A stretch of 64,000 nucleotides of DNA, from assembly GCF_055900595.2 (NCBI RefSeq), contig NZ_CM148325.1. One strand, written 5' to 3'. Both the position numbers and the translations under genes were made by a program. Below, piece after piece: positions 41,481 through 52,495 of the stretch. The notes under the pieces were generated by a model. The model was not told where the DNA came from. It worked only from the letters and a program-made list of their open reading frames with translations, and made no database searches. Position 1 is the stretch's first letter. Each line of letters starts with the position of its first letter.

Positions 41481-42317
41481 ATGGCGCACGACGAACAATG
41501 GCTTACCCCGCGGCTGCAAACGGCGGCAACGCTGTGTAACCAGACGCCCGCCGCGTCGGAATCTCCGCTGTGGCTGGGGGTGGATCTGGGCACCTGCGAT
41601 GTGGTGTCGATGGTTGTCGACGGCGACGGTCAGCCGGTGGCGGTATGCCTCGACTGGGCCGATGTGGTCCGCGACGGCATCGTCTGGGATTTCTTCGGTG
41701 CTGTCACCATTGTTCGTCGCCATCTCGATACCCTTGAGCAGCAATTTGGTCGCCGTTTTAGCCATGCGGCGACCTCATTTCCTCCTGGTACGGACCCGCG
41801 TATTTCCATCAACGTGCTGGAGTCTGCCGGGCTGGAAGTGAGCCATGTGCTGGATGAGCCAACCGCAGTCGCGGATCTACTGCAACTGGATAACGCAGGC
41901 GTAGTGGATATTGGCGGCGGCACTACCGGAATTGCCATCGTGAAAAAGGGCAAGGTGACTTATTCAGCGGATGAAGCGACCGGCGGACATCACATTTCTC
42001 TGACTCTCGCCGGAAATCGCCGTATTTCGCTGGGAGAGGCAGAGCAGTACAAGCGCGGTCACGGTGACGAGATTTGGCCTGCGGTGAAGCCGGTGTACGA
42101 AAAAATGGCGGACATTGTTGCCCGACATATTGAAGGGCAGGGCATTACTGATTTATGGCTGGCGGGCGGCTCCTGTATGCAACCGGGCGTGGCGGAACTG
42201 TTTTGCAAACAATTCCCGGCGTTACAGGTGCATCTACCGCAGCACAGTTTGTTTATGACCCCGCTGGCGATCGCCAGTAGCGGGCGAGAGAAAGCGGAGG
42301 GGATCTATGCAAAATGA
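41481..42317 (+). CDS. eutJ: Ethanolamine utilization chaperone-like protein (actin/Hsp70 fold)
   Basis: 278 aa with DxG and GGGT ATPase motifs. Confidence 0.92.
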   Translation: MAHDEQWLTPRLQTAATLCNQTPAASESPLWLGVDLGTCDVVSMVVDGDGQPVAVCLDWADVVRDGIVWDFFGAVTIVRRHLDTLEQQFGRRFSHAATSFPPGTDPRISINVLESAGLEVSHVLDEPTAVADLLQLDNAGVVDIGGGTTGIAIVKKGKVTYSADEATGGHHISLTLAGNRRISLGEAEQYKRGHGDEIWPAVKPVYEKMADIVARHIEGQGITDLWLAGGSCMQPGVAELFCKQFPALQVHLPQHSLFMTPLAIASSGREKAEGIYAK

Positions 42318-43494
42318 ATTGCAGACCGCGCTCTTTCAGGCGTTCGATACCCTGAATCTGCAACGGGTAAAAACATTTAGCGTTCCACCGGTGACGCTTT
42401 GCGGCCCGGGCGCGGTGAGCAGTTGCGGACAGCAAGCACAAACGCGTGGGCTGAAACATCTGTTCGTGATGGCAGACAGCTTTTTGCATCAGGCGGGGAT
42501 GACCGCCGGGCTGACGCGCAGTCTGGCCGTTAAAGGCATCGCCATGACGCTCTGGCCATGTCCGGTGGGCGAACCGTGCATCACTGACGTGTGTGCCGCC
42601 GTGGCGCAACTGCGCGAATCAGGCTGTGACGGGGTGATCGCGTTTGGCGGTGGCTCGGTGCTGGATGCGGCAAAAGCCGTTGCGTTGCTGGTGACGAACC
42701 CCGACAGCACGCTGGCAGAAATGTCAGAAACCAGCGTTCTGCAACCGCGTCTGCCGCTGATTGCCATTCCAACTACCGCCGGAACCGGCTCTGAAACCAC
42801 CAATGTAACGGTGATTATCGACGCGGTGAGCGGGCGCAAGCAGGTGTTAGCACATGCCTCGTTGATGCCGGATGTGGCGATTCTCGATGCCGCGCTGACC
42901 GAAGGTGTGCCGTCGCATGTCACGGCAATGACCGGTATCGACGCGTTAACTCATGCCATTGAAGCGTACAGCGCGCTGAACGCTACACCGTTTACCGACA
43001 GTCTGGCGATTGGTGCCATTGCGATGATTGGCAAATCACTGCCGAAAGCAGTGGGCTACGGTCACGACCTTGCCGCGCGCGAGAGTATGTTGCTGGCTTC
43101 ATGCATGGCGGGAATGGCATTTTCCAGTGCCGGACTTGGGTTATGTCACGCGATGGCGCATCAGCCGGGGGCGGCGCTGCATATTCCGCACGGACTGGCG
43201 AACGCCATGCTGCTGCCCACGGTGATGGAGTTTAACCGGATGGTCTGTCGCGAACGCTTTAGTCAGATTGGTCGGGCGCTGCGAACTAAAAAATCCGACG
43301 ATCGTGATGCTATTAACGCGGTAAGTGAGCTGATTGCGGAAGTCGGGATTGGTAAACGACTGGGCGATGTTGGTGCGGCATCTGCGCATTACGGCGCATG
43401 GGCGCAGGCCGCGCTGGAAGATATTTGTCTGCGCAGCAACCCGCGTACCGCCAGCCTGGAGCAGATTGTCGGCTTGTACGCAGCGGCGCAATAA
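42307..43494 (+). CDS. eutG: Iron-containing alcohol dehydrogenase of the eut operon
   Basis: 395-aa Fe-ADH family protein; overlaps the eutJ end by 11 nt. Confidence 0.93.
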   Translation: MQNELQTALFQAFDTLNLQRVKTFSVPPVTLCGPGAVSSCGQQAQTRGLKHLFVMADSFLHQAGMTAGLTRSLAVKGIAMTLWPCPVGEPCITDVCAAVAQLRESGCDGVIAFGGGSVLDAAKAVALLVTNPDSTLAEMSETSVLQPRLPLIAIPTTAGTGSETTNVTVIIDAVSGRKQVLAHASLMPDVAILDAALTEGVPSHVTAMTGIDALTHAIEAYSALNATPFTDSLAIGAIAMIGKSLPKAVGYGHDLAARESMLLASCMAGMAFSSAGLGLCHAMAHQPGAALHIPHGLANAMLLPTVMEFNRMVCRERFSQIGRALRTKKSDDRDAINAVSELIAEVGIGKRLGDVGAASAHYGAWAQAALEDICLRSNPRTASLEQIVGLYAAAQ

Positions 43495-43496
43495 AT

Positions 43497-43580
<84 letters not shown>

Positions 43581-43610
43581 ATAAATAACAACTAACAGGG
43601 AGTAAAGGCG

Positions 43611-46248: not shown

Positions 46249-47610
46249 ATGAAACTAAAGACCACATTGTTCGGCAATGTATATCAGTTTAAGGATGTAA
46301 AAGAGGTGCTGGCTAAAGCCAACGAACTGCGTTCGGGGGATGTGCTGGCGGGCGTTGCAGCGGCAAGTTCACAGGAGCGCGTGGCGGCAAAGCAGGTGTT
46401 GTCGGAAATGACCGTAGCGGACATCCGCAATAATCCGGTGATTGCCTATGAAGATGACTGCGTGACGCGGCTGATTCAGGACGACGTTAACGAAACGGCC
46501 TACAACCAGATTAAAAACTGGAGCATCAGCGAACTGCGTGAGTATGTGCTGAGTGATGAAACCAGCGTGGACGACATTGCCTTTACCCGCAAAGGGCTGA
46601 CCTCGGAAGTGGTCGCGGCGGTAGCGAAGATTTGCTCCAACGCGGACCTGATCTACGGCGCGAAGAAAATGCCGATTATCAAAAAGGCCAATACTACCAT
46701 CGGTATTCCGGGCACCTTTAGCGCCCGTTTGCAGCCGAACGATACCCGTGACGACGTGCAGAGTATCGCCGCGCAAATCTACGAAGGGCTTTCCTTCGGG
46801 GTAGGCGATGCGGTGATCGGCGTTAACCCGGTGACTGACGACGTGGAAAACTTAAGCCGCGTGCTGGATACCATCTATGGCGTGATCGACAAATTCAACA
46901 TTCCGACCCAGGGCTGCGTGCTGGCGCACGTTACTACCCAGATTGAAGCGATCCGTCGCGGCGCGCCGGGCGGGCTGATTTTCCAGAGCATCTGCGGCAG
47001 CGAAAAAGGGCTGAAAGAATTTGGCGTGGAGCTGGCGATGCTCGATGAAGCACGCGCAGTGGGCGCAGAGTTTAACCGTATCGCCGGGGAAAACTGCCTC
47101 TACTTCGAAACCGGGCAAGGTTCTGCGCTATCGGCGGGCGCTAACTTCGGCGCAGATCAGGTAACGATGGAAGCGCGTAACTACGGGCTGGCACGTCATT
47201 ACGATCCGTTTATCGTCAACACCGTAGTGGGCTTTATTGGGCCAGAGTATCTCTACAACGACCGGCAGATTATCCGTGCGGGCTTAGAAGATCACTTTAT
47301 GGGCAAACTGAGCGGCATTTCTATGGGCTGTGACTGCTGCTACACCAACCACGCTGACGCTGACCAGAACCTCAACGAAAACCTGATGATCCTGCTCGCC
47401 ACCGCAGGCTGCAACTACATCATGGGGATGCCGCTGGGTGATGACATCATGCTCAACTACCAGACCACCGCATTCCACGATACCGCCACTGTGCGTCAGT
47501 TACTCAACCTGCGCCCGTCACCGGAGTTTGAACGCTGGCTGGAAAGCATGGGCATTATGGCAAACGGTCGCCTGACCAAACGGGCGGGCGATCCGTCACT
47601 GTTCTTCTGA
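46249..47610 (+). CDS. eutB: Ethanolamine ammonia-lyase large (heavy) subunit
   Basis: 453 aa MKLKTTLFGNVYQFKDVKEVLAKANELRSGD...; directly follows eutA after an 11-nt spacer. Confidence 0.95.
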   Translation: MKLKTTLFGNVYQFKDVKEVLAKANELRSGDVLAGVAAASSQERVAAKQVLSEMTVADIRNNPVIAYEDDCVTRLIQDDVNETAYNQIKNWSISELREYVLSDETSVDDIAFTRKGLTSEVVAAVAKICSNADLIYGAKKMPIIKKANTTIGIPGTFSARLQPNDTRDDVQSIAAQIYEGLSFGVGDAVIGVNPVTDDVENLSRVLDTIYGVIDKFNIPTQGCVLAHVTTQIEAIRRGAPGGLIFQSICGSEKGLKEFGVELAMLDEARAVGAEFNRIAGENCLYFETGQGSALSAGANFGADQVTMEARNYGLARHYDPFIVNTVVGFIGPEYLYNDRQIIRAGLEDHFMGKLSGISMGCDCCYTNHADADQNLNENLMILLATAGCNYIMGMPLGDDIMLNYQTTAFHDTATVRQLLNLRPSPEFERWLESMGIMANGRLTKRAGDPSLFF

Positions 47611-47630
47611 TGACGCGGAGATAACACATC

Positions 47631-48518
47631 ATGGATCAAAAACAGATTGAAGAAATTGTACGCAGCGTGATGGCGTCAATGGGACAAGCGGCCCCCGCGC
47701 CGTCAGAAGCAAAATGCGCCACTACCACCTGTGCAGCACCGATGACCTCGGAAAGCTGCGCGCTGGATTTAGGTTCCGCAGAAGCAAAAGCGTGGATTGG
47801 CGTTGAAAACCCACATCGCGCAGACGTATTAACTGAACTGCGCCGCAGCACCGTGGCTCGCGTCTGTACCGGTCGTGCCGGTCCGCGTCCGCGTACCCAG
47901 GCGTTGCTGCGTTTCCTGGCCGATCACTCTCGTTCGAAAGACACCGTACTGAAAGAAGTGCCGGAAGAGTGGGTGAAAGCGCAGGGCTTGCTGGAGGTCC
48001 GCTCTGAAATTAGCGACAAAAATCTCTATCTGACTCGCCCGGATATGGGCCGCCGCTTGTGTGCAGAGGCTGTTGAAGCGCTGAAAGCGCAGTGTGTTGC
48101 CAATCCGGACGTACAGGTCGTTATTTCTGATGGCCTGTCAACTGATGCGATCACCGTGAACTACGAAGAGATCCTGCCACCGCTGATGGCGGGCCTGAAA
48201 CAGGCCGGGTTGAAAGTCGGCACACCGTTCTTTGTGCGTTACGGTCGCGTGAAGATTGAAGATCAGATTGGCGAACTTCTTGGCGCGAAAGTGGTGATCC
48301 TGCTGGTGGGGGAACGCCCAGGATTAGGGCAGTCAGAAAGCCTCTCCTGCTACGCCGTTTACTCGCCGCGTATGGCAACCACCGTTGAGGCCGATCGCAC
48401 CTGTATCTCTAACATTCACCAGGGCGGCACGCCGCCGGTTGAAGCCGCAGCCGTCATTGTGGATTTGGCGAAACGTATGCTGGAGCAGAAAGCATCCGGC
48501 ATCAACATGACCCGATAA
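47631..48518 (+). CDS. eutC: Ethanolamine ammonia-lyase small (light) subunit
   Basis: 295 aa. Confidence 0.94.
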
Positions 48519-48527
48519 GGAGGCATC

Positions 48528-49187
48528 ATGCCAGCTTTAGATTTGATTCGACCGTCGGTAACCGCCATGCGGGTGATTGCCTCTGTCAACGCCGAATTTG
48601 CGCGTGAACTGAAATTGCCGCCGCATATTCGTAGCCTCGGGCTGATTTCTGCTGATTCCGATGACGTCACCTACATTGCGGCTGACGAAGCGACCAAGCA
48701 GGCGATGGTTGAAGTCGTGTATGGTCGCTCGCTGTATGCGGGAGCTGCACACGGGCCGTCACCGACTGCCGGTGAGGTGCTGATTATGCTTGGTGGGCCA
48801 AACCCGGCGGAAGTGCGTGCTGGTCTGGATGCGATGGTTGCGCATATTGAAAATGGCGCTGCTTTCCAGTGGGCTAATGATGCAGAAAACACAGCCTTCC
48901 TGGCGCATGTCGTTTCGCGTACCGGCTCTTATCTCTCATCAACCGCCGGGATCACGCTTGGCGATCCGCTGGCGTATCTGGTGGCACCGCCGCTGGAAGC
49001 GACCTACGGCATTGATGCAGCGTTGAAATCTGCCGACGTGCAGCTGGTGACCTATGTCCCGCCACCGTCTGAAACCAACTACTCGGCAGCATTTTTAACC
49101 GGTAGCCAGGCCGCGTGTAAAGCAGCCTGTAACGCCTTTACCGATGCAGTGCTGGAAATCGCGCGTAATCCAATCCAGCGTGCGTAA
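48528..49187 (+). CDS. eutL: Ethanolamine microcompartment shell protein (tandem BMC domains)
   Basis: 219 aa. Confidence 0.93.
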
Positions 49188-49199
49188 CGGAGGTTGCCG

Positions 49200-49700
49200 A
49201 TGATCAATGCACTGGGATTGCTGGAAGTGGACGGCATGGTCGCCGCGATAGATGCAGCTGATGCCATGCTCAAAGCAGCTAACGTTCGTCTGCTCAGTCA
49301 CGAAGTGCTTGACCCTGGTCGCCTAACGCTGGTGGTGGAAGGCGATCTGGCGGCGTGTCGTGCGGCGCTGGACGCAGGTTGTGCTGCCGCGATGCGTACC
49401 GGGCGTGTCATCAGCCGTAAGGAGATCGGTCGGCCAGACGATGACACCCAGTGGCTGGTTACTGGCTTTAACCGCCAGCCGAAGCAACCCGTAAAGGAAC
49501 CCGACGCGCCAGTTATCGTCGCGGAATCTGCTGACGAGTTGTTGGCGCTGTTAACATCAGTACGTCAGGGAATGACGGCAGGAGAAGTGGCTGCCCACTT
49601 TGGCTGGCCGCTGGAAAAAGCCAGAAATGCGCTCGAACAGCTCTTTTCTGCCGGGACGTTACGTAAACGCAGTAGTCGTTATCGTCTCAAGCCCCATTAA
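49200..49700 (+). CDS. eutK: Ethanolamine microcompartment shell protein with C-terminal nucleic-acid-binding-like domain
   Basis: 166 aa from MINALGLLEVDGMVAAIDAADAMLKAANV... Confidence 0.9.
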   Translation: MINALGLLEVDGMVAAIDAADAMLKAANVRLLSHEVLDPGRLTLVVEGDLAACRAALDAGCAAAMRTGRVISRKEIGRPDDDTQWLVTGFNRQPKQPVKEPDAPVIVAESADELLALLTSVRQGMTAGEVAAHFGWPLEKARNALEQLFSAGTLRKRSSRYRLKPH

Positions 49701-49745
49701 CCTGTCGGAGGTGCCGGGTGTCCTACAACACCCGGCATTAACATC

Positions 49746-50798
49746 ATGAAAAAGACCCGTACAGCTAATTTGCACCATCTTTATCATGAACCCTTACCCG
49801 AAAACCTGAAGCTAACGCCGAAGGTCGAAGTGGATAATGTTCATCAACGGCAAACAACGGATGTCTATGAACATGCTTTGACGATTACCGCCTGGCAGCA
49901 GATTTACGATCAGCTGCATCCGGGCAAATTTCATGGTGAATTTACGGAAATTCTGCTCGATGATATTCAGGTTTTCCGTGAATACACGGGGCTGGCGCTG
50001 CGTCAGTCGTGCCTGGTCTGGCCGAATTCGTTCTGGTTTGGCATTCCGGCGACGCGCGGTGAGCAGGGATTTATCGGTTCGCAATGTCTGGGAAGCGCAG
50101 AAATAGCGACGCGCCCTGGTGGAACCGAGTTTGAATTAAGTACGCCGGACGATTACACGATCCTTGGCGTGGTGCTTTCTGAAGATGTCATCACCCGGCA
50201 GGCTAACTTTTTGCATAACCCGGAAAGGGTGCTGCATATGTTACGTAACCAGTCGGCGCTGGAAGTGAAAGAGCAGCATAAAGCCGCGCTGTGGGGCTTT
50301 GTCCAACAGGCTCTGGCGACATTTTGCGAGAACCCGGAAAATCTCCATCAGCCTGCAGTGCGAAAAGTGCTGGGGGATAATTTGCTAATGGCGATGGGGG
50401 CGATGCTGGAAGAAGCGCAGCCAATGGTGACGGTGGAAAGCATCAGTCATCAGAGTTACCGTCGGTTGCTTTCCCGCGCCCGTGAATATGTGCTGGAAAA
50501 CATGTCCGAACCGGTGACGGTGCTGGACTTGTGTAATCAACTGCACGTCAGTCGCCGCACCTTGCAAAACGCATTTCACGCTATTTTGGGCATTGGCCCG
50601 AATGCGTGGCTGAAACGCATTCGCCTGAACGCCGTGCGCCGTGAACTGATTAGCCCGTGGTCGCAAAGTATGACGGTAAAAGACGCCGCCATGCAGTGGG
50701 GATTCTGGCATCTTGGGCAGTTTGCCACGGATTATCAGCAATTGTTTGCAGAAAAGCCTTCACTGACGCTGCATCAGCGGATGCAGGAACTGGAGTGA
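49746..50798 (+). CDS. eutR: AraC-family transcriptional activator of the eut operon
   Basis: 350 aa with a C-terminal AraC-type HTH. Confidence 0.93.
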
Positions 50799-50874
50799 GG
50801 GTGAGGGCCGGATGAGGATGGTGTTTGATCCGGTCCATAGTGAAGTTACAAATTACGTTGAATTGCTATGTATT

Positions 50875-51192
50875 TTATTGCCCAACGGGATAGGCGATAA
50901 ACAAACCGACAATTGTCAAAATACACGCCAGCAGGAATACCAACATACAATTTACGCGCTTTCGCGAAATTTTAAATAAATAGCAAAATAGTGTTGTTAC
51001 CACGATCACTACCGGGATAGTCATAAAATTAATAACGATGAGTGCTATCAATCCAAAACTTGCTCCTCCACCGTGGGGAATAAAAATGTGTTCTTCAAAA
51101 TAAACTTCTATAGCAAATGCCAGCACACATCCCAGAAAACTCATATCCAGATGAGGGTGCCATTTACTTTCTTTATGTGATGTGTCTGACAT
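50875..51192 (-). CDS. Hypothetical small membrane protein (105 aa, about 3 predicted TM helices)
   Basis: ATG preceded by a GGGAG SD; hydrophobic segments FLGCVLAFAIEVYF, FGLIALIVINFMTIPVVIVVTTLFCYLF, CMLVFLLACILTIVGLFIAYPV; 40 nt downstream of and co-oriented with the 420-aa gene. Confidence 0.6.
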   Translation of the reverse strand: MSDTSHKESKWHPHLDMSFLGCVLAFAIEVYFEEHIFIPHGGGASFGLIALIVINFMTIPVVIVVTTLFCYLFKISRKRVNCMLVFLLACILTIVGLFIAYPVGQ

Positions 51193-51232
51193 TCTTAAAT
51201 GCTCCCGTGAGCAAACTGGCGCAAAATAATTT

Positions 51233-52495
51233 CTAAGATTGCTGATAAGACGTCGCTGTTGTCCGGCACTCCGGGCAGATAAACGCGTAAATTATCCCTT
51301 CGCCGTATTGTTCAATATCGGCATAATCCAGTTGCGCAAGAAACATCATTGTGTGGGAACATTGCGGACAGAGAGGATATTCCGCGTCCTGAATCCAGGT
51401 TGGATGCCCGCCAAGTTGCGAGAAAGAGACAGGTAAAAATGGGTCTGCGGCAAATAACGGTGACCTAAGGTTTCCCTGTCTCATGCTGTTTACAGGGAGT
51501 CGACGCCATTCCGATACATCATCCGGCAGCCAGGCAGGCGGGATATTTTTTGCAGACAAATGAGCGTTACCCTTTGAGTCCATGTAGCCGAAAATGGTGC
51601 TGTAGGCGGTGCAACATTCGCAAGTCACGACGCGAAAACTGCCGTTATCGCTAAGACCCGTTGCCTTCAGGTCAACGTCGAAAAGATTTGTTAGTGGCAA
51701 TGCGCAATTTGGACAGGTATCGTTGCGTTCATCAACAACACGCAAAGCTTCGCAAGACCCGGTGCTTTTCATCTCCAGATGAAAACATTGAGGAAAATAG
51801 AGATTACGCCTTTGATCTTCAGCGGTTAACTCCCAACCGGCCTCATGCGCATATTCTTCAGGCTCGATGTAAAGGGAGCTGCGCCACGGCGGTGGGCTAT
51901 TGCGCCAGTGGGCAAAACGTTCAACGACAACGTCATCCCCAATCCATGCCAGACATTGCAGAATACAATTTCTGTTTTCTGCATCATCCTCAACCCGTTC
52001 TAACAGCCTGTCGCGTACATCTGTGGGGGCGCGGTGGAAAGGCATATAAGAATCATTGTCCAAATCATCGTAAGAGATCCATTCTCTGAAATAGGCATTC
52101 AGATTCGCCTGGGTAAATGCCGCCAGACAAAGGCAAATCTCCTGAGCGAGCTTATATTCACCAGATGCAAAGCGTTCTGTGGCGTAATCAGCCATCAGCT
52201 GCGCTTGATCGGTGGTCAGTTGTTGATACAGGGCATCTGTGGGAACGGGGCAGGGAGTCCAGTCGATTAACGCATCGAATTTCCGCGGTTGGTGAATTAA
52301 TTTCAGCATGACAACCGGATCGCTTAACCCTGCAAACGCATTCACGATCTTTTTGTTTTTCTTGATATATTCGTCGTGCTCACGTTGCTGTTGGGCCTGC
52401 TCGCAGGGCATGCAGTATCCGTTAGTACGCGCTGCGGTTTCCGGAAGAATGGTTGATATACAAGCGGGGCTTTTACAGGGAATACGGTGAGTCAT
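51233..52495 (-). CDS. Hypothetical cysteine-rich protein (420 aa) with zinc-ribbon motifs and a DUF1963/YwqG-like C-terminal region
   Basis: ATG with an AAGGAG SD 8 nt upstream; N-terminal C-x4-C...C-x2-C (CKSPAC...CMPC), internal CPNC...CECC, and C-terminal GGHPTWIQDAEYPLCPQCSHTMMFLAQLDYADIEQYGEGIIYAFICPEC. Family assignment is from memory, not a search. Confidence 0.7.
   Translation of the reverse strand: MTHRIPCKSPACISTILPETAARTNGYCMPCEQAQQQREHDEYIKKNKKIVNAFAGLSDPVVMLKLIHQPRKFDALIDWTPCPVPTDALYQQLTTDQAQLMADYATERFASGEYKLAQEICLCLAAFTQANLNAYFREWISYDDLDNDSYMPFHRAPTDVRDRLLERVEDDAENRNCILQCLAWIGDDVVVERFAHWRNSPPPWRSSLYIEPEEYAHEAGWELTAEDQRRNLYFPQCFHLEMKSTGSCEALRVVDERNDTCPNCALPLTNLFDVDLKATGLSDNGSFRVVTCECCTAYSTIFGYMDSKGNAHLSAKNIPPAWLPDDVSEWRRLPVNSMRQGNLRSPLFAADPFLPVSFSQLGGHPTWIQDAEYPLCPQCSHTMMFLAQLDYADIEQYGEGIIYAFICPECRTTATSYQQS

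Follow-up and report, generated by a model that had tools for sequence, protein, structure and literature searches.

A conserved, covarying hairpin between eutK and eutR and its possible part in a split ribosome-binding site

The 45-nt spacer between eutK and eutR, at the distal end of the eut operon on the + strand of the E. coli DNA examined here (a window of 64,000 nucleotides, to which all plain positions refer), contains a hairpin that is real, conserved and covarying, and that constitutes an evolutionarily maintained RNA structure. The best explanation available is that this hairpin makes a split ribosome-binding site like those of phage T4 genes 25 and 38, a mechanism to which we assign a probability of about 0.5. 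Its effect on eutR would more likely be enabling, with the hairpin bridging the Shine-Dalgarno (SD) sequence and the AUG, than one of simple occlusion. From sequence comparison we infer that ribosomes may use a distal SD across the hairpin, and the same holds for the sign and size of any effect.

EutR activates ethanolamine utilisation in E. coli and Salmonella and also influences virulence-gene expression in EHEC. The level of EutR is critical, given autoinduction of the operon and the targeting of eutR mRNA by both RNase E and the sRNA MavR. A conserved split site, if true, would represent an unrecognised post-transcriptional layer that sets the amount of EutR made per operon transcript. The literature searched contains no description of a structure in the eutK-eutR spacer; the original Salmonella papers lay outside this search and a prior mention there is possible.

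The junction is made up of the following features.

49200-49700, + strand: eutK coding sequence from the open reading frame list, 166 aa, with a BMC domain and an EutK_C domain; stop codon TAA at 49698-49700
49701-49706, + strand: spacer from the eutK stop to the SD, 6 nt, cctgtc
49707-49711, + strand: Shine-Dalgarno sequence GGAGG, assigned by anti-SD duplex energy; its GGAG is invariant in core junctions
49712-49721, + strand: 5' arm of the hairpin, T followed by GCCGGGTGT (49713-49721)
49722-49727, + strand: hexaloop cctaca between the arms
49728-49737, + strand: 3' arm of the hairpin, ACACCCGGC (49728-49736) followed by A, covarying with the 5' arm
49738-49745, + strand: 3' spacer ttaacatc from the stem to the start codon, A/U-rich and without an SD
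49746-50798, + strand: eutR coding sequence, 350 aa, AraC-type activator of the eut operon; start codon ATG at 49746

Read in order, the spacer (49701-49745) and start codon are cctgtc GGAGG t GCCGGGTGT cctaca ACACCCGGC a ttaacatc ATG. Further evidence supports the gene assignments on either side: eutK measures 501 nt in the RefSeq annotation of the identical K-12-type locus, Pfam BMC and EutK_C matches are recorded for its orthologues, eutR is annotated in 5,400 E. coli genomes, and the MKKT.. N-terminus of EutR is kept across loci. The ATG at 49746 is the first in-frame start past the in-frame eutK stop codon.

A sequence-only reading of this DNA had reported a perfect 9-bp stem-loop in the spacer, ending about 10 nt before the eutR ATG and lacking a T-tract. 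All of this was borne out, with arms at 49713-49721 and 49728-49736, a loop at 49722-49727, a measured distance of 9 nt to the ATG, and attaacatc as the bases that follow the stem. Pairing of T49712 with A49737 brings the total to 10 Watson-Crick pairs, and the minimum free energy fold, in which the hairpin also appears, adds the G.U pairs G49711.U49738 and G49710.U49739. The isolated hairpin has a predicted stability of -17 to -20 kcal/mol, while a fold of the surrounding 120 nt reaches -34 kcal/mol (z = -4.06), a value equalled by 0 of 200 shuffles. A single 9-bp hairpin within 64 kb is unremarkable by itself and only weakly beyond chance: the window holds 16 nested entries at 9 places for perfect hairpins of at least 9 bp with loops of 3-10 nt, against a Markov-1 random expectation of 2.6 +/- 1.9 entries. 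The eutR hairpin exceeds chance because of its conservation and the compensatory substitutions found across genera.

What the earlier reading overlooked is the GGAGG at 49707-49711 on the 5' side of the stem, together with the lack of an SD in the 3' spacer. This GGAGG is the only strong anti-SD complement upstream of eutR and adjoins the 5' base of the stem. Anti-SD duplex energies are -8.9 to -10.1 kcal/mol for the 5' flank of the stem, compared with +2.0 kcal/mol for the 3' spacer and -1.7 kcal/mol for the canonical -17 to -4 window, and by this measure no SD occurs in the 8-9 nt between the stem and the eutR ATG. Whatever other role the hairpin plays, initiation at E. coli eutR must work with the SD on its far side. 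The linear distance from GGAGG to ATG is 34 nt, while the distance across the folded base of the hairpin is 8-10 nt. Among 95 open reading frame starts in the window (at least 100 aa), eutR is alone in having all three of a stable hairpin, a strong SD 5' of it and a proximal spacer without an SD. The start region of eutR is A-rich and predicted to be mostly unpaired (mean ensemble probability of being unpaired 0.43-0.92). The SD is often left partly paired in predicted context folds, which in E. coli involves two G.U pairs with the 3' flank.

Several other observations concern the start region and its annotation. An EutR cluster with 2,937 members is called at 357 aa (L065:1501-1522, protein P0015), from an in-frame TTG that belongs to the loop of the hairpin and precedes the conserved ATG by 21 nt; further clusters, P0001, P0014 and P0016, are called at 353-359 aa. 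The longer calls probably reflect wrong starts chosen by gene callers because of the displaced SD; a true N-terminal extension in the P0015 lineage is less likely. Most genera other than Escherichia carry a GATC (Dam site) right before the eutR ATG (aGATCATG), at the place where Escherichia has CATC (49742-49745). In Salmonella enterica (L064) and in L007, RNAfold pairs the conserved CUGUCGGAGG with UUUUCUGACGG inside eutK codons, about 65 nt upstream of the SD, a pairing that would mask the SD on untranslated (P2-type) transcripts in Salmonella and Citrobacter. It is not regarded as conserved, however, since no such long-range pairing between the SD region and eutK is predicted in E. coli. 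Coupling through a leader peptide was likewise considered and set aside: the E. coli candidate (GTG-MSYNTRH-TAA) is missing in 5 of 16 representatives, and frame, length and stop position all differ in the remainder.

The DNA beyond eutR also varies. In the window, eutR is followed directly by two open reading frames of 105 aa and 420 aa (50875-52495, - strand), whereas hemF (coproporphyrinogen oxidase) and amiA directly follow eutR in L068, L071 and L073, and a 425-aa gene with a faint DUF1963 match follows it in S. enterica (L064). One E. coli strain (H30) has an integrase beside a truncated eutR. The gap between eutR and hemF looks like a variable insertion spot.

Within E. coli the junction is nearly invariant. 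Of 5390 genomes, 5365 share the 48-nt spacer without a single difference, and the surrounding 401 nt show 1-2% divergence in most genomes. Rare variants in E. coli and close Escherichia touch only the loop or the 5' spacer (cgtaca, catata), and E. whittamii carries a compensated change of a U-A to a C-G pair in the stem. The comparison was extended to 63 eutR loci, with one genome per species, and 12 further loci found through EutR homologues, which yielded approximately 40 junctions of the same type with 19 distinct helices. These junctions come from Escherichia, Salmonella, Citrobacter, the Klebsiella oxytoca group, a K. pneumoniae-like metagenome contig, Pseudocitrobacter, Phytobacter, a Pluralibacter MAG, strain ESL0689 and other relatives. 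The sequence-only reading had proposed conservation across Enterobacteriaceae as a check on its claim, and across the genera just listed the stem is indeed kept by compensatory changes.

The core layout consists of the eutK stop (TAA or TAG), 6 nt, GGAG[G/A], 0-2 nt, the hairpin, 8-11 nt that contain no SD, and the start codon of eutR (ATG, and once GTG). GGAG is invariant in all core junctions, and the 6-nt spacer between stop and SD is fixed in length, although its sequence differs in L067 (tgaacc) and L068 (caagct). Core hairpins have 7-12 bp and stabilities of -14 to -23 kcal/mol, with the exception of the weaker one in Klebsiella sp. S69, and the SD-AUG distance is 34-38 nt when linear and 8-13 nt when collapsed. 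An A/U-rich single-stranded stretch lies upstream of the element in most genera. In Intestinirhabdus alba (L028:2915-2990) the hairpin has grown to approximately 75 nt by an insert that carries its own GCCTGATG-type inner stem-loop, with the SD, basal stem and 3' spacer unchanged, an expansion compatible with a model in which what counts is the helix base, whatever the helix length. Among the core-type junctions, only that of Klebsiella sp. S69 (L069:1451-1512) has a degenerate hairpin, whose 5-bp stem (GCCGG/CCGGC) closes a 16-nt loop (-6.5 kcal/mol); this junction keeps the SD GGAGA, has no proximal SD, and may be viewed as a natural 'mutant' of the hairpin.

The pattern of substitution in the helix was examined in two ways. 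A MAFFT alignment gapped one arm only and was therefore unfit for counting pairs, the arms being too divergent between genera; it was replaced by an Infernal covariance-model alignment of 31 distinct sequences and by a stem-anchored table of rungs built on the CCGG/CCGG core. In the rung table, rungs 1, 2 and 6-11 show alternative Watson-Crick or G.U pairs: rung 7 occurs as UA, CG, AU, GU and UG, rungs 9-11 switch among UA, CG, GC and UG, rung 2 changes from CG to UA in Phytobacter and is constant elsewhere, and rung 1 changes from GC to AU in L076. By our count, about five of approximately 190 cells in this table are unpaired. In the covariance-model alignment, 86.7% of cells are paired compared to 80.1% in shuffles (0 of 500 reached the observed value), changes on both sides affect 7 of 11 pairs (9 of 500 shuffles), and the covariation score is 0.249 compared to 0.158 in shuffles (0 of 500). 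Pairing falls to 36-61% in slid controls, in which the 3' partner is shifted. These values understate pairing, as the alignment misregisters two apical rungs and scores 14 of 31 cells there as unpaired. In addition, the sense-strand hairpin is more stable than its antisense counterpart in 21 of the 31 sequences (mean -18.5 vs -15.6 kcal/mol) because of G.U pairs. Together these patterns point to an mRNA structure, and not a DNA site, as the probable nature of the element.

The suggestion that the stem-loop might mark an internal promoter found no support: no sigma-70-like match was found in 49100-49900 and evolution that changes the sequence while preserving the pairing argues against a DNA signal. 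A weak constitutive promoter, P2, is described as one that 'precedes eutR' in Salmonella, without coordinates (PMC5821096). An Rfam cmscan search of 47000-52000 (E<=10) returned only a chance 5.8S match inside eutR. The site at which MavR pairs lies towards the 3' end within the eutR coding sequence, away from the spacer (PMC8565329).

Outside the core junctions the arrangement ends in two different ways. A canonically spaced SD and no hairpin are found in Buttiauxella, Hafnia, Morganella, Pluralibacter gergoviae, Brenneria, Dickeya, Pectobacterium and Lonsdalea. In Buttiauxella eutK is adjacent, with a gap of 18 nt and the SD AAGGA; Hafnia, Morganella and Pluralibacter gergoviae have another BMC gene upstream of eutR; and in Brenneria, Dickeya, Pectobacterium and Lonsdalea the upstream gene is eutE, at a distance of 109-260 nt. 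Other relatives keep the hairpin with a different SD placement: Yokenella (L030) and L071 have SD-like sequence at both sides, and L070 and L072 (Entomohabitans-type) have an SD on the 3' side only. Among the junctions compared, none that bore a hairpin lacked an SD on both sides at once. The stem starts 9-12 nt past the eutK stop in E. coli, 11-13 nt past it in core junctions and 5-13 nt past it in the hairpin-bearing outgroups, and this distance between stop and stem is the one distance kept in all hairpin-bearing junctions. The older and constant feature is thus a hairpin 5-13 nt past the eutK stop and approximately 11 nt before the AUG, while an exclusive 5' SD is the mark of the Escherichia-Salmonella-Citrobacter-Klebsiella clade. 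Since the hairpin persists in outgroups whose SD is on its 3' side, it has, or had, a role that is independent of bridging; an additional or older role as an mRNA stability boundary, or through a stop-proximal effect on eutK, is likely. The core clade represents essentially one origin of the 5'-SD arrangement, so that the association of SD and hairpin amounts to a single evolutionary case.

A split ribosome-binding site would operate as follows. In an extended chain, GGAGG at 34 nt upstream of the AUG would be beyond the working range, but the hairpin of 24-26 nt fills nearly the whole interval between SD and AUG, and folding would place the two 8-10 nt apart across the stem base, a usable spacing. 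The 30S subunit would bind the SD, possibly right after terminating at the eutK stop 6 nt upstream, with the hairpin kept clear of the mRNA track and the AUG, in its unstructured and A-rich surroundings, set in the P site. The net outcome would be a fixed and probably modest translation efficiency for a regulator encoded at the end of a strongly induced operon.

Split sites can be recognised by an SD more than approximately 15 nt from the start codon, a stable hairpin that fills the interval and leaves a functional collapsed distance, the lack of a canonically spaced alternative SD, and phylogenetic upkeep of the intervening structure. At eutR the distance is 34 nt (34-38 nt in all core junctions), the collapsed distance is 8-13 nt (5 and 11 nt in T4), anti-SD duplex energies reveal no canonically spaced alternative, and the structure is kept in 19 helices with covariation above that of controls. 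The earlier proposal that the stem could modulate initiation of eutR translation is thus favoured by the covariation, by the SD-hairpin-AUG geometry and by the hairpin-less taxa with a canonical SD, whereas the action on the ribosome is the part that we infer. Several points weigh against a split site: besides the outgroup pattern, the single origin and the partial pairing of the SD in context folds, the collapsed spacing of 8-13 nt plus the width of the helix is at the long end of the functional range, the A-rich and unstructured AUG region might support initiation independent of the SD, and Klebsiella sp. S69 keeps only its 5-bp stem and 16-nt loop.

There are several other potential explanations for the conservation of the hairpin. 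It is possible, if rather unlikely, that the element serves as intercistronic mRNA punctuation, that is, chiefly as an RNA-stability element for which adjacency to the SD is secondary, a role compatible with a split ribosome-binding site. Such a hairpin could act as a barrier to 3'-5' exonucleases, guarding the upstream eutS...eutK message after cleavage in eutR, or both this and a 5'-proximal stem that shields from RNase E an eutR message that is processed or comes from P2, or such a stem alone. The processing site that the sequence-only reading had also suggested belongs to this class of live rivals. The hairpin predates the 5'-SD arrangement, given the 3'-side SD of Yokenella, L070, L071 and L072, and eutR mRNA is an RNase E target (PMC8565329); the A/U-rich single-stranded stretch before the element in most genera and the presence of other intercistronic hairpins and a REP pair within the eut operon would also suit such a function. 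However, punctuation leaves unexplained the invariant GGAG abutting the stem, the lost 3' SD and the fixed spacer lengths.

A combination of roles, which we regard as doubtful, is a dual device, possibly derived from a REP element, that lies right behind an SD and close enough to the eutK stop for a ribosome there to reach it, and that would throttle EutK termination and output and also hand the ribosome over the hairpin base to the eutR AUG. If true, this would amount to shunt-like translational coupling of regulator synthesis to shell-gene translation. In a bolder variant, the C-terminal domain of EutK, a nucleic-acid-binding domain, would bind the hairpin on its own mRNA and thereby gate EutR translation.

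More doubtful still is a purely stop-proximal stem-loop, one that impedes the ribosome terminating on eutK and lowers synthesis of the shell protein EutK, with any effect on eutR being incidental. The stem lies 9-12 nt past the eutK stop (5-13 nt in all hairpin-bearing junctions), under the limit of 16 nt, and its basal stem, GCCGG[G/A]T...A[C/T]CCGGC, is like that of REPs. By the rule of Liang et al. 2015, as summarised in PMC12306157, an upstream gene is translated less when a REP follows its stop codon by less than 16 nt. The eutR element, however, is no REP, being single-copy and without GTAG/CTAC, and a stop-proximal effect leaves the conserved SD and the lost 3' SD unexplained. With regard to the ribosome footprint, a stem that starts 11-12 nt past the stop need not unwind for the stop codon to enter the A site.

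No better placed is initiation independent of the SD, from the A-rich start region aucAUGAAAAAGA, with the hairpin as an insulator that locks GC-rich sequence away or as a brake that holds EutR low by separating SD and AUG. This is consistent with a start region that is A-rich and mostly unpaired in ensemble predictions, and with the partial pairing of the SD in several predicted context folds. However, GGAG is strictly kept 0-2 nt from the stem even though the neighbouring 6 nt have diverged, and the canonical SD of every hairpin-less relative suggests that eutR initiation is normally SD-dependent.

A palindrome bound by protein at the DNA level, such as an operator bound by the C-terminal part of EutK, which is encoded just upstream, or by a transcription factor that controls P2, is very improbable. 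The outer half-sites CCGG...CCGG are invariant, the EutK C-terminal domain is a helix-turn-helix domain without known function (PMC5821096), and each hairpin-bearing junction is preceded by an EutK_C-containing gene, but this co-occurrence is trivial because the junction exists only where eutK precedes eutR. The inner 4-7 bp vary freely while pairing persists, rungs 1 and 2 also compensate, and the G.U pairs favour sense RNA over duplex or cruciform DNA. In addition, Buttiauxella and a Telmatospirillum MAG have, by inspection, the same EutK C-terminus beside eutR and no hairpin. Least probable of all is a terminator or attenuator limiting read-through into the regulator gene, for although a stable GC-rich hairpin does lie at a gene boundary, no aligned species has a U-tract (or T-run) after it, the scan of 49100-49900 found no terminator-like site, and eutR is expressed from the main promoter P1 in a positive feedback loop (PMC5821096), so that read-through is required.

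The split ribosome-binding site that remains our preferred reading can be compared with several known systems. Rho-independent terminators share a stable GC-rich hairpin after a stop codon, but eutR lacks the U-tract and transcription must continue. REP and BIME elements are, like the eutR element, GC-rich intercistronic palindromes less than 16 nt past a stop codon; REPs make the mRNA upstream of them more stable and can reduce how much of the preceding gene is translated. The eutR basal stem, GCCGG[G/A]T...A[C/T]CCGGC, resembles the REP basal stem GCCGGAT...ATCCGGC, and the basal 5-7 bp of the REP consensus stem (GCCGGATG..., approximately 35 nt) match the eutR element, exactly so in L067. 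In contrast, the eutR element measures 24-27 nt, has an inner stem unlike that of REPs, and shows orthologous, compensatory evolution where REPs show presence/absence polymorphism. The GTAG/CTAC tetranucleotide is a motif associated with the RAYT transposase, and it is absent at the eutR element, whose flanks are GGAG (5') and ATTAAC (3'). A blastn search of 5,389 E. coli genomes with the 48-nt spacer (word size 11, E<=10) found a median of 1 place per genome and so no family of REP copies. An origin from a REP is possible, although unproven.

Elsewhere in the window, a REP pair in opposite orientation (BIME), GCCGGATGCGACGCTTGTCGCGTCTTATCCGGCCTAC and GTAGGGCGGATAAGGCGTTCACGCCGCATCCGCC, both carrying CCTAC/GTAGG, occupies 43495-43590, between a 395-aa open reading frame that ends at 43494 (eutG-like) and a gene from 43611 (MGINEII..., eutH-like). 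Another strong intercistronic hairpin of the eut operon, CCCCGCTGGCGATCGCCAGTAGCGGG, lies at approximately 42260-42300 (about -21 kcal/mol for the region) and is followed by a canonical GGAGG before the open reading frame at 42307, an order opposite to that at eutR.

Noncontiguous translation-initiation regions are described as rare in bacteria (PMC7297116). In the E. coli thrS and rpmE initiation regions, as at eutR, a conserved stem-loop is tolerated and both of its sides contribute (PMC7297116). However, the thrS/rpmE hairpin parts an AU-rich enhancer from a normally spaced SD and is the operator of a protein repressor, whereas at eutR the SD itself lies beyond the hairpin, for which there is no known binding protein.

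The closest parallels come from phage T4. In gene 38 (Gold 1988, as cited in PMC3014915 and PMC7297116), a hairpin brings the SD-AUG distance from 22 to 5 nt; eutR is similar in that a hairpin joins SD and AUG, while gene 38 is a phage gene with a shorter collapsed spacing. In gene 25, at the gene 26-25 junction, the distance changes from 27 to 11 nt (Nivinskas et al. 1999 and Malys & Nivinskas 2009, as reviewed in PMC3014915). Mutations that destabilise the hairpins of genes 38 and 25 lower initiation (PMC3014915; PMC7297116), and the T4 split site is found in close relatives and missing from distant ones, which have ordinary sites (PMC3014915). Like gene 25, eutR has a stable intercistronic hairpin that parts SD from AUG, with a linear distance of 34 nt compared to 27 nt and a collapsed spacing of 8-10 nt compared to 11 nt, and in both cases the arrangement occurs in close relatives while distant ones have ordinary sites. 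There are also differences: for gene 25, a late gene of the phage, the evidence comes from reporters, mutations and DMS, whereas for chromosomal eutR it is comparative; the eutR site precedes the operon's own activator; and the hairpin of some eutR outgroups has its SD on the opposite side. Natural arrangements of SD, hairpin and AUG have been described as rare and characterised mainly in phage T4, and eutR would add a deeply conserved chromosomal example with rich covariation and a tractable test of how the 30S subunit handles structured spacers.
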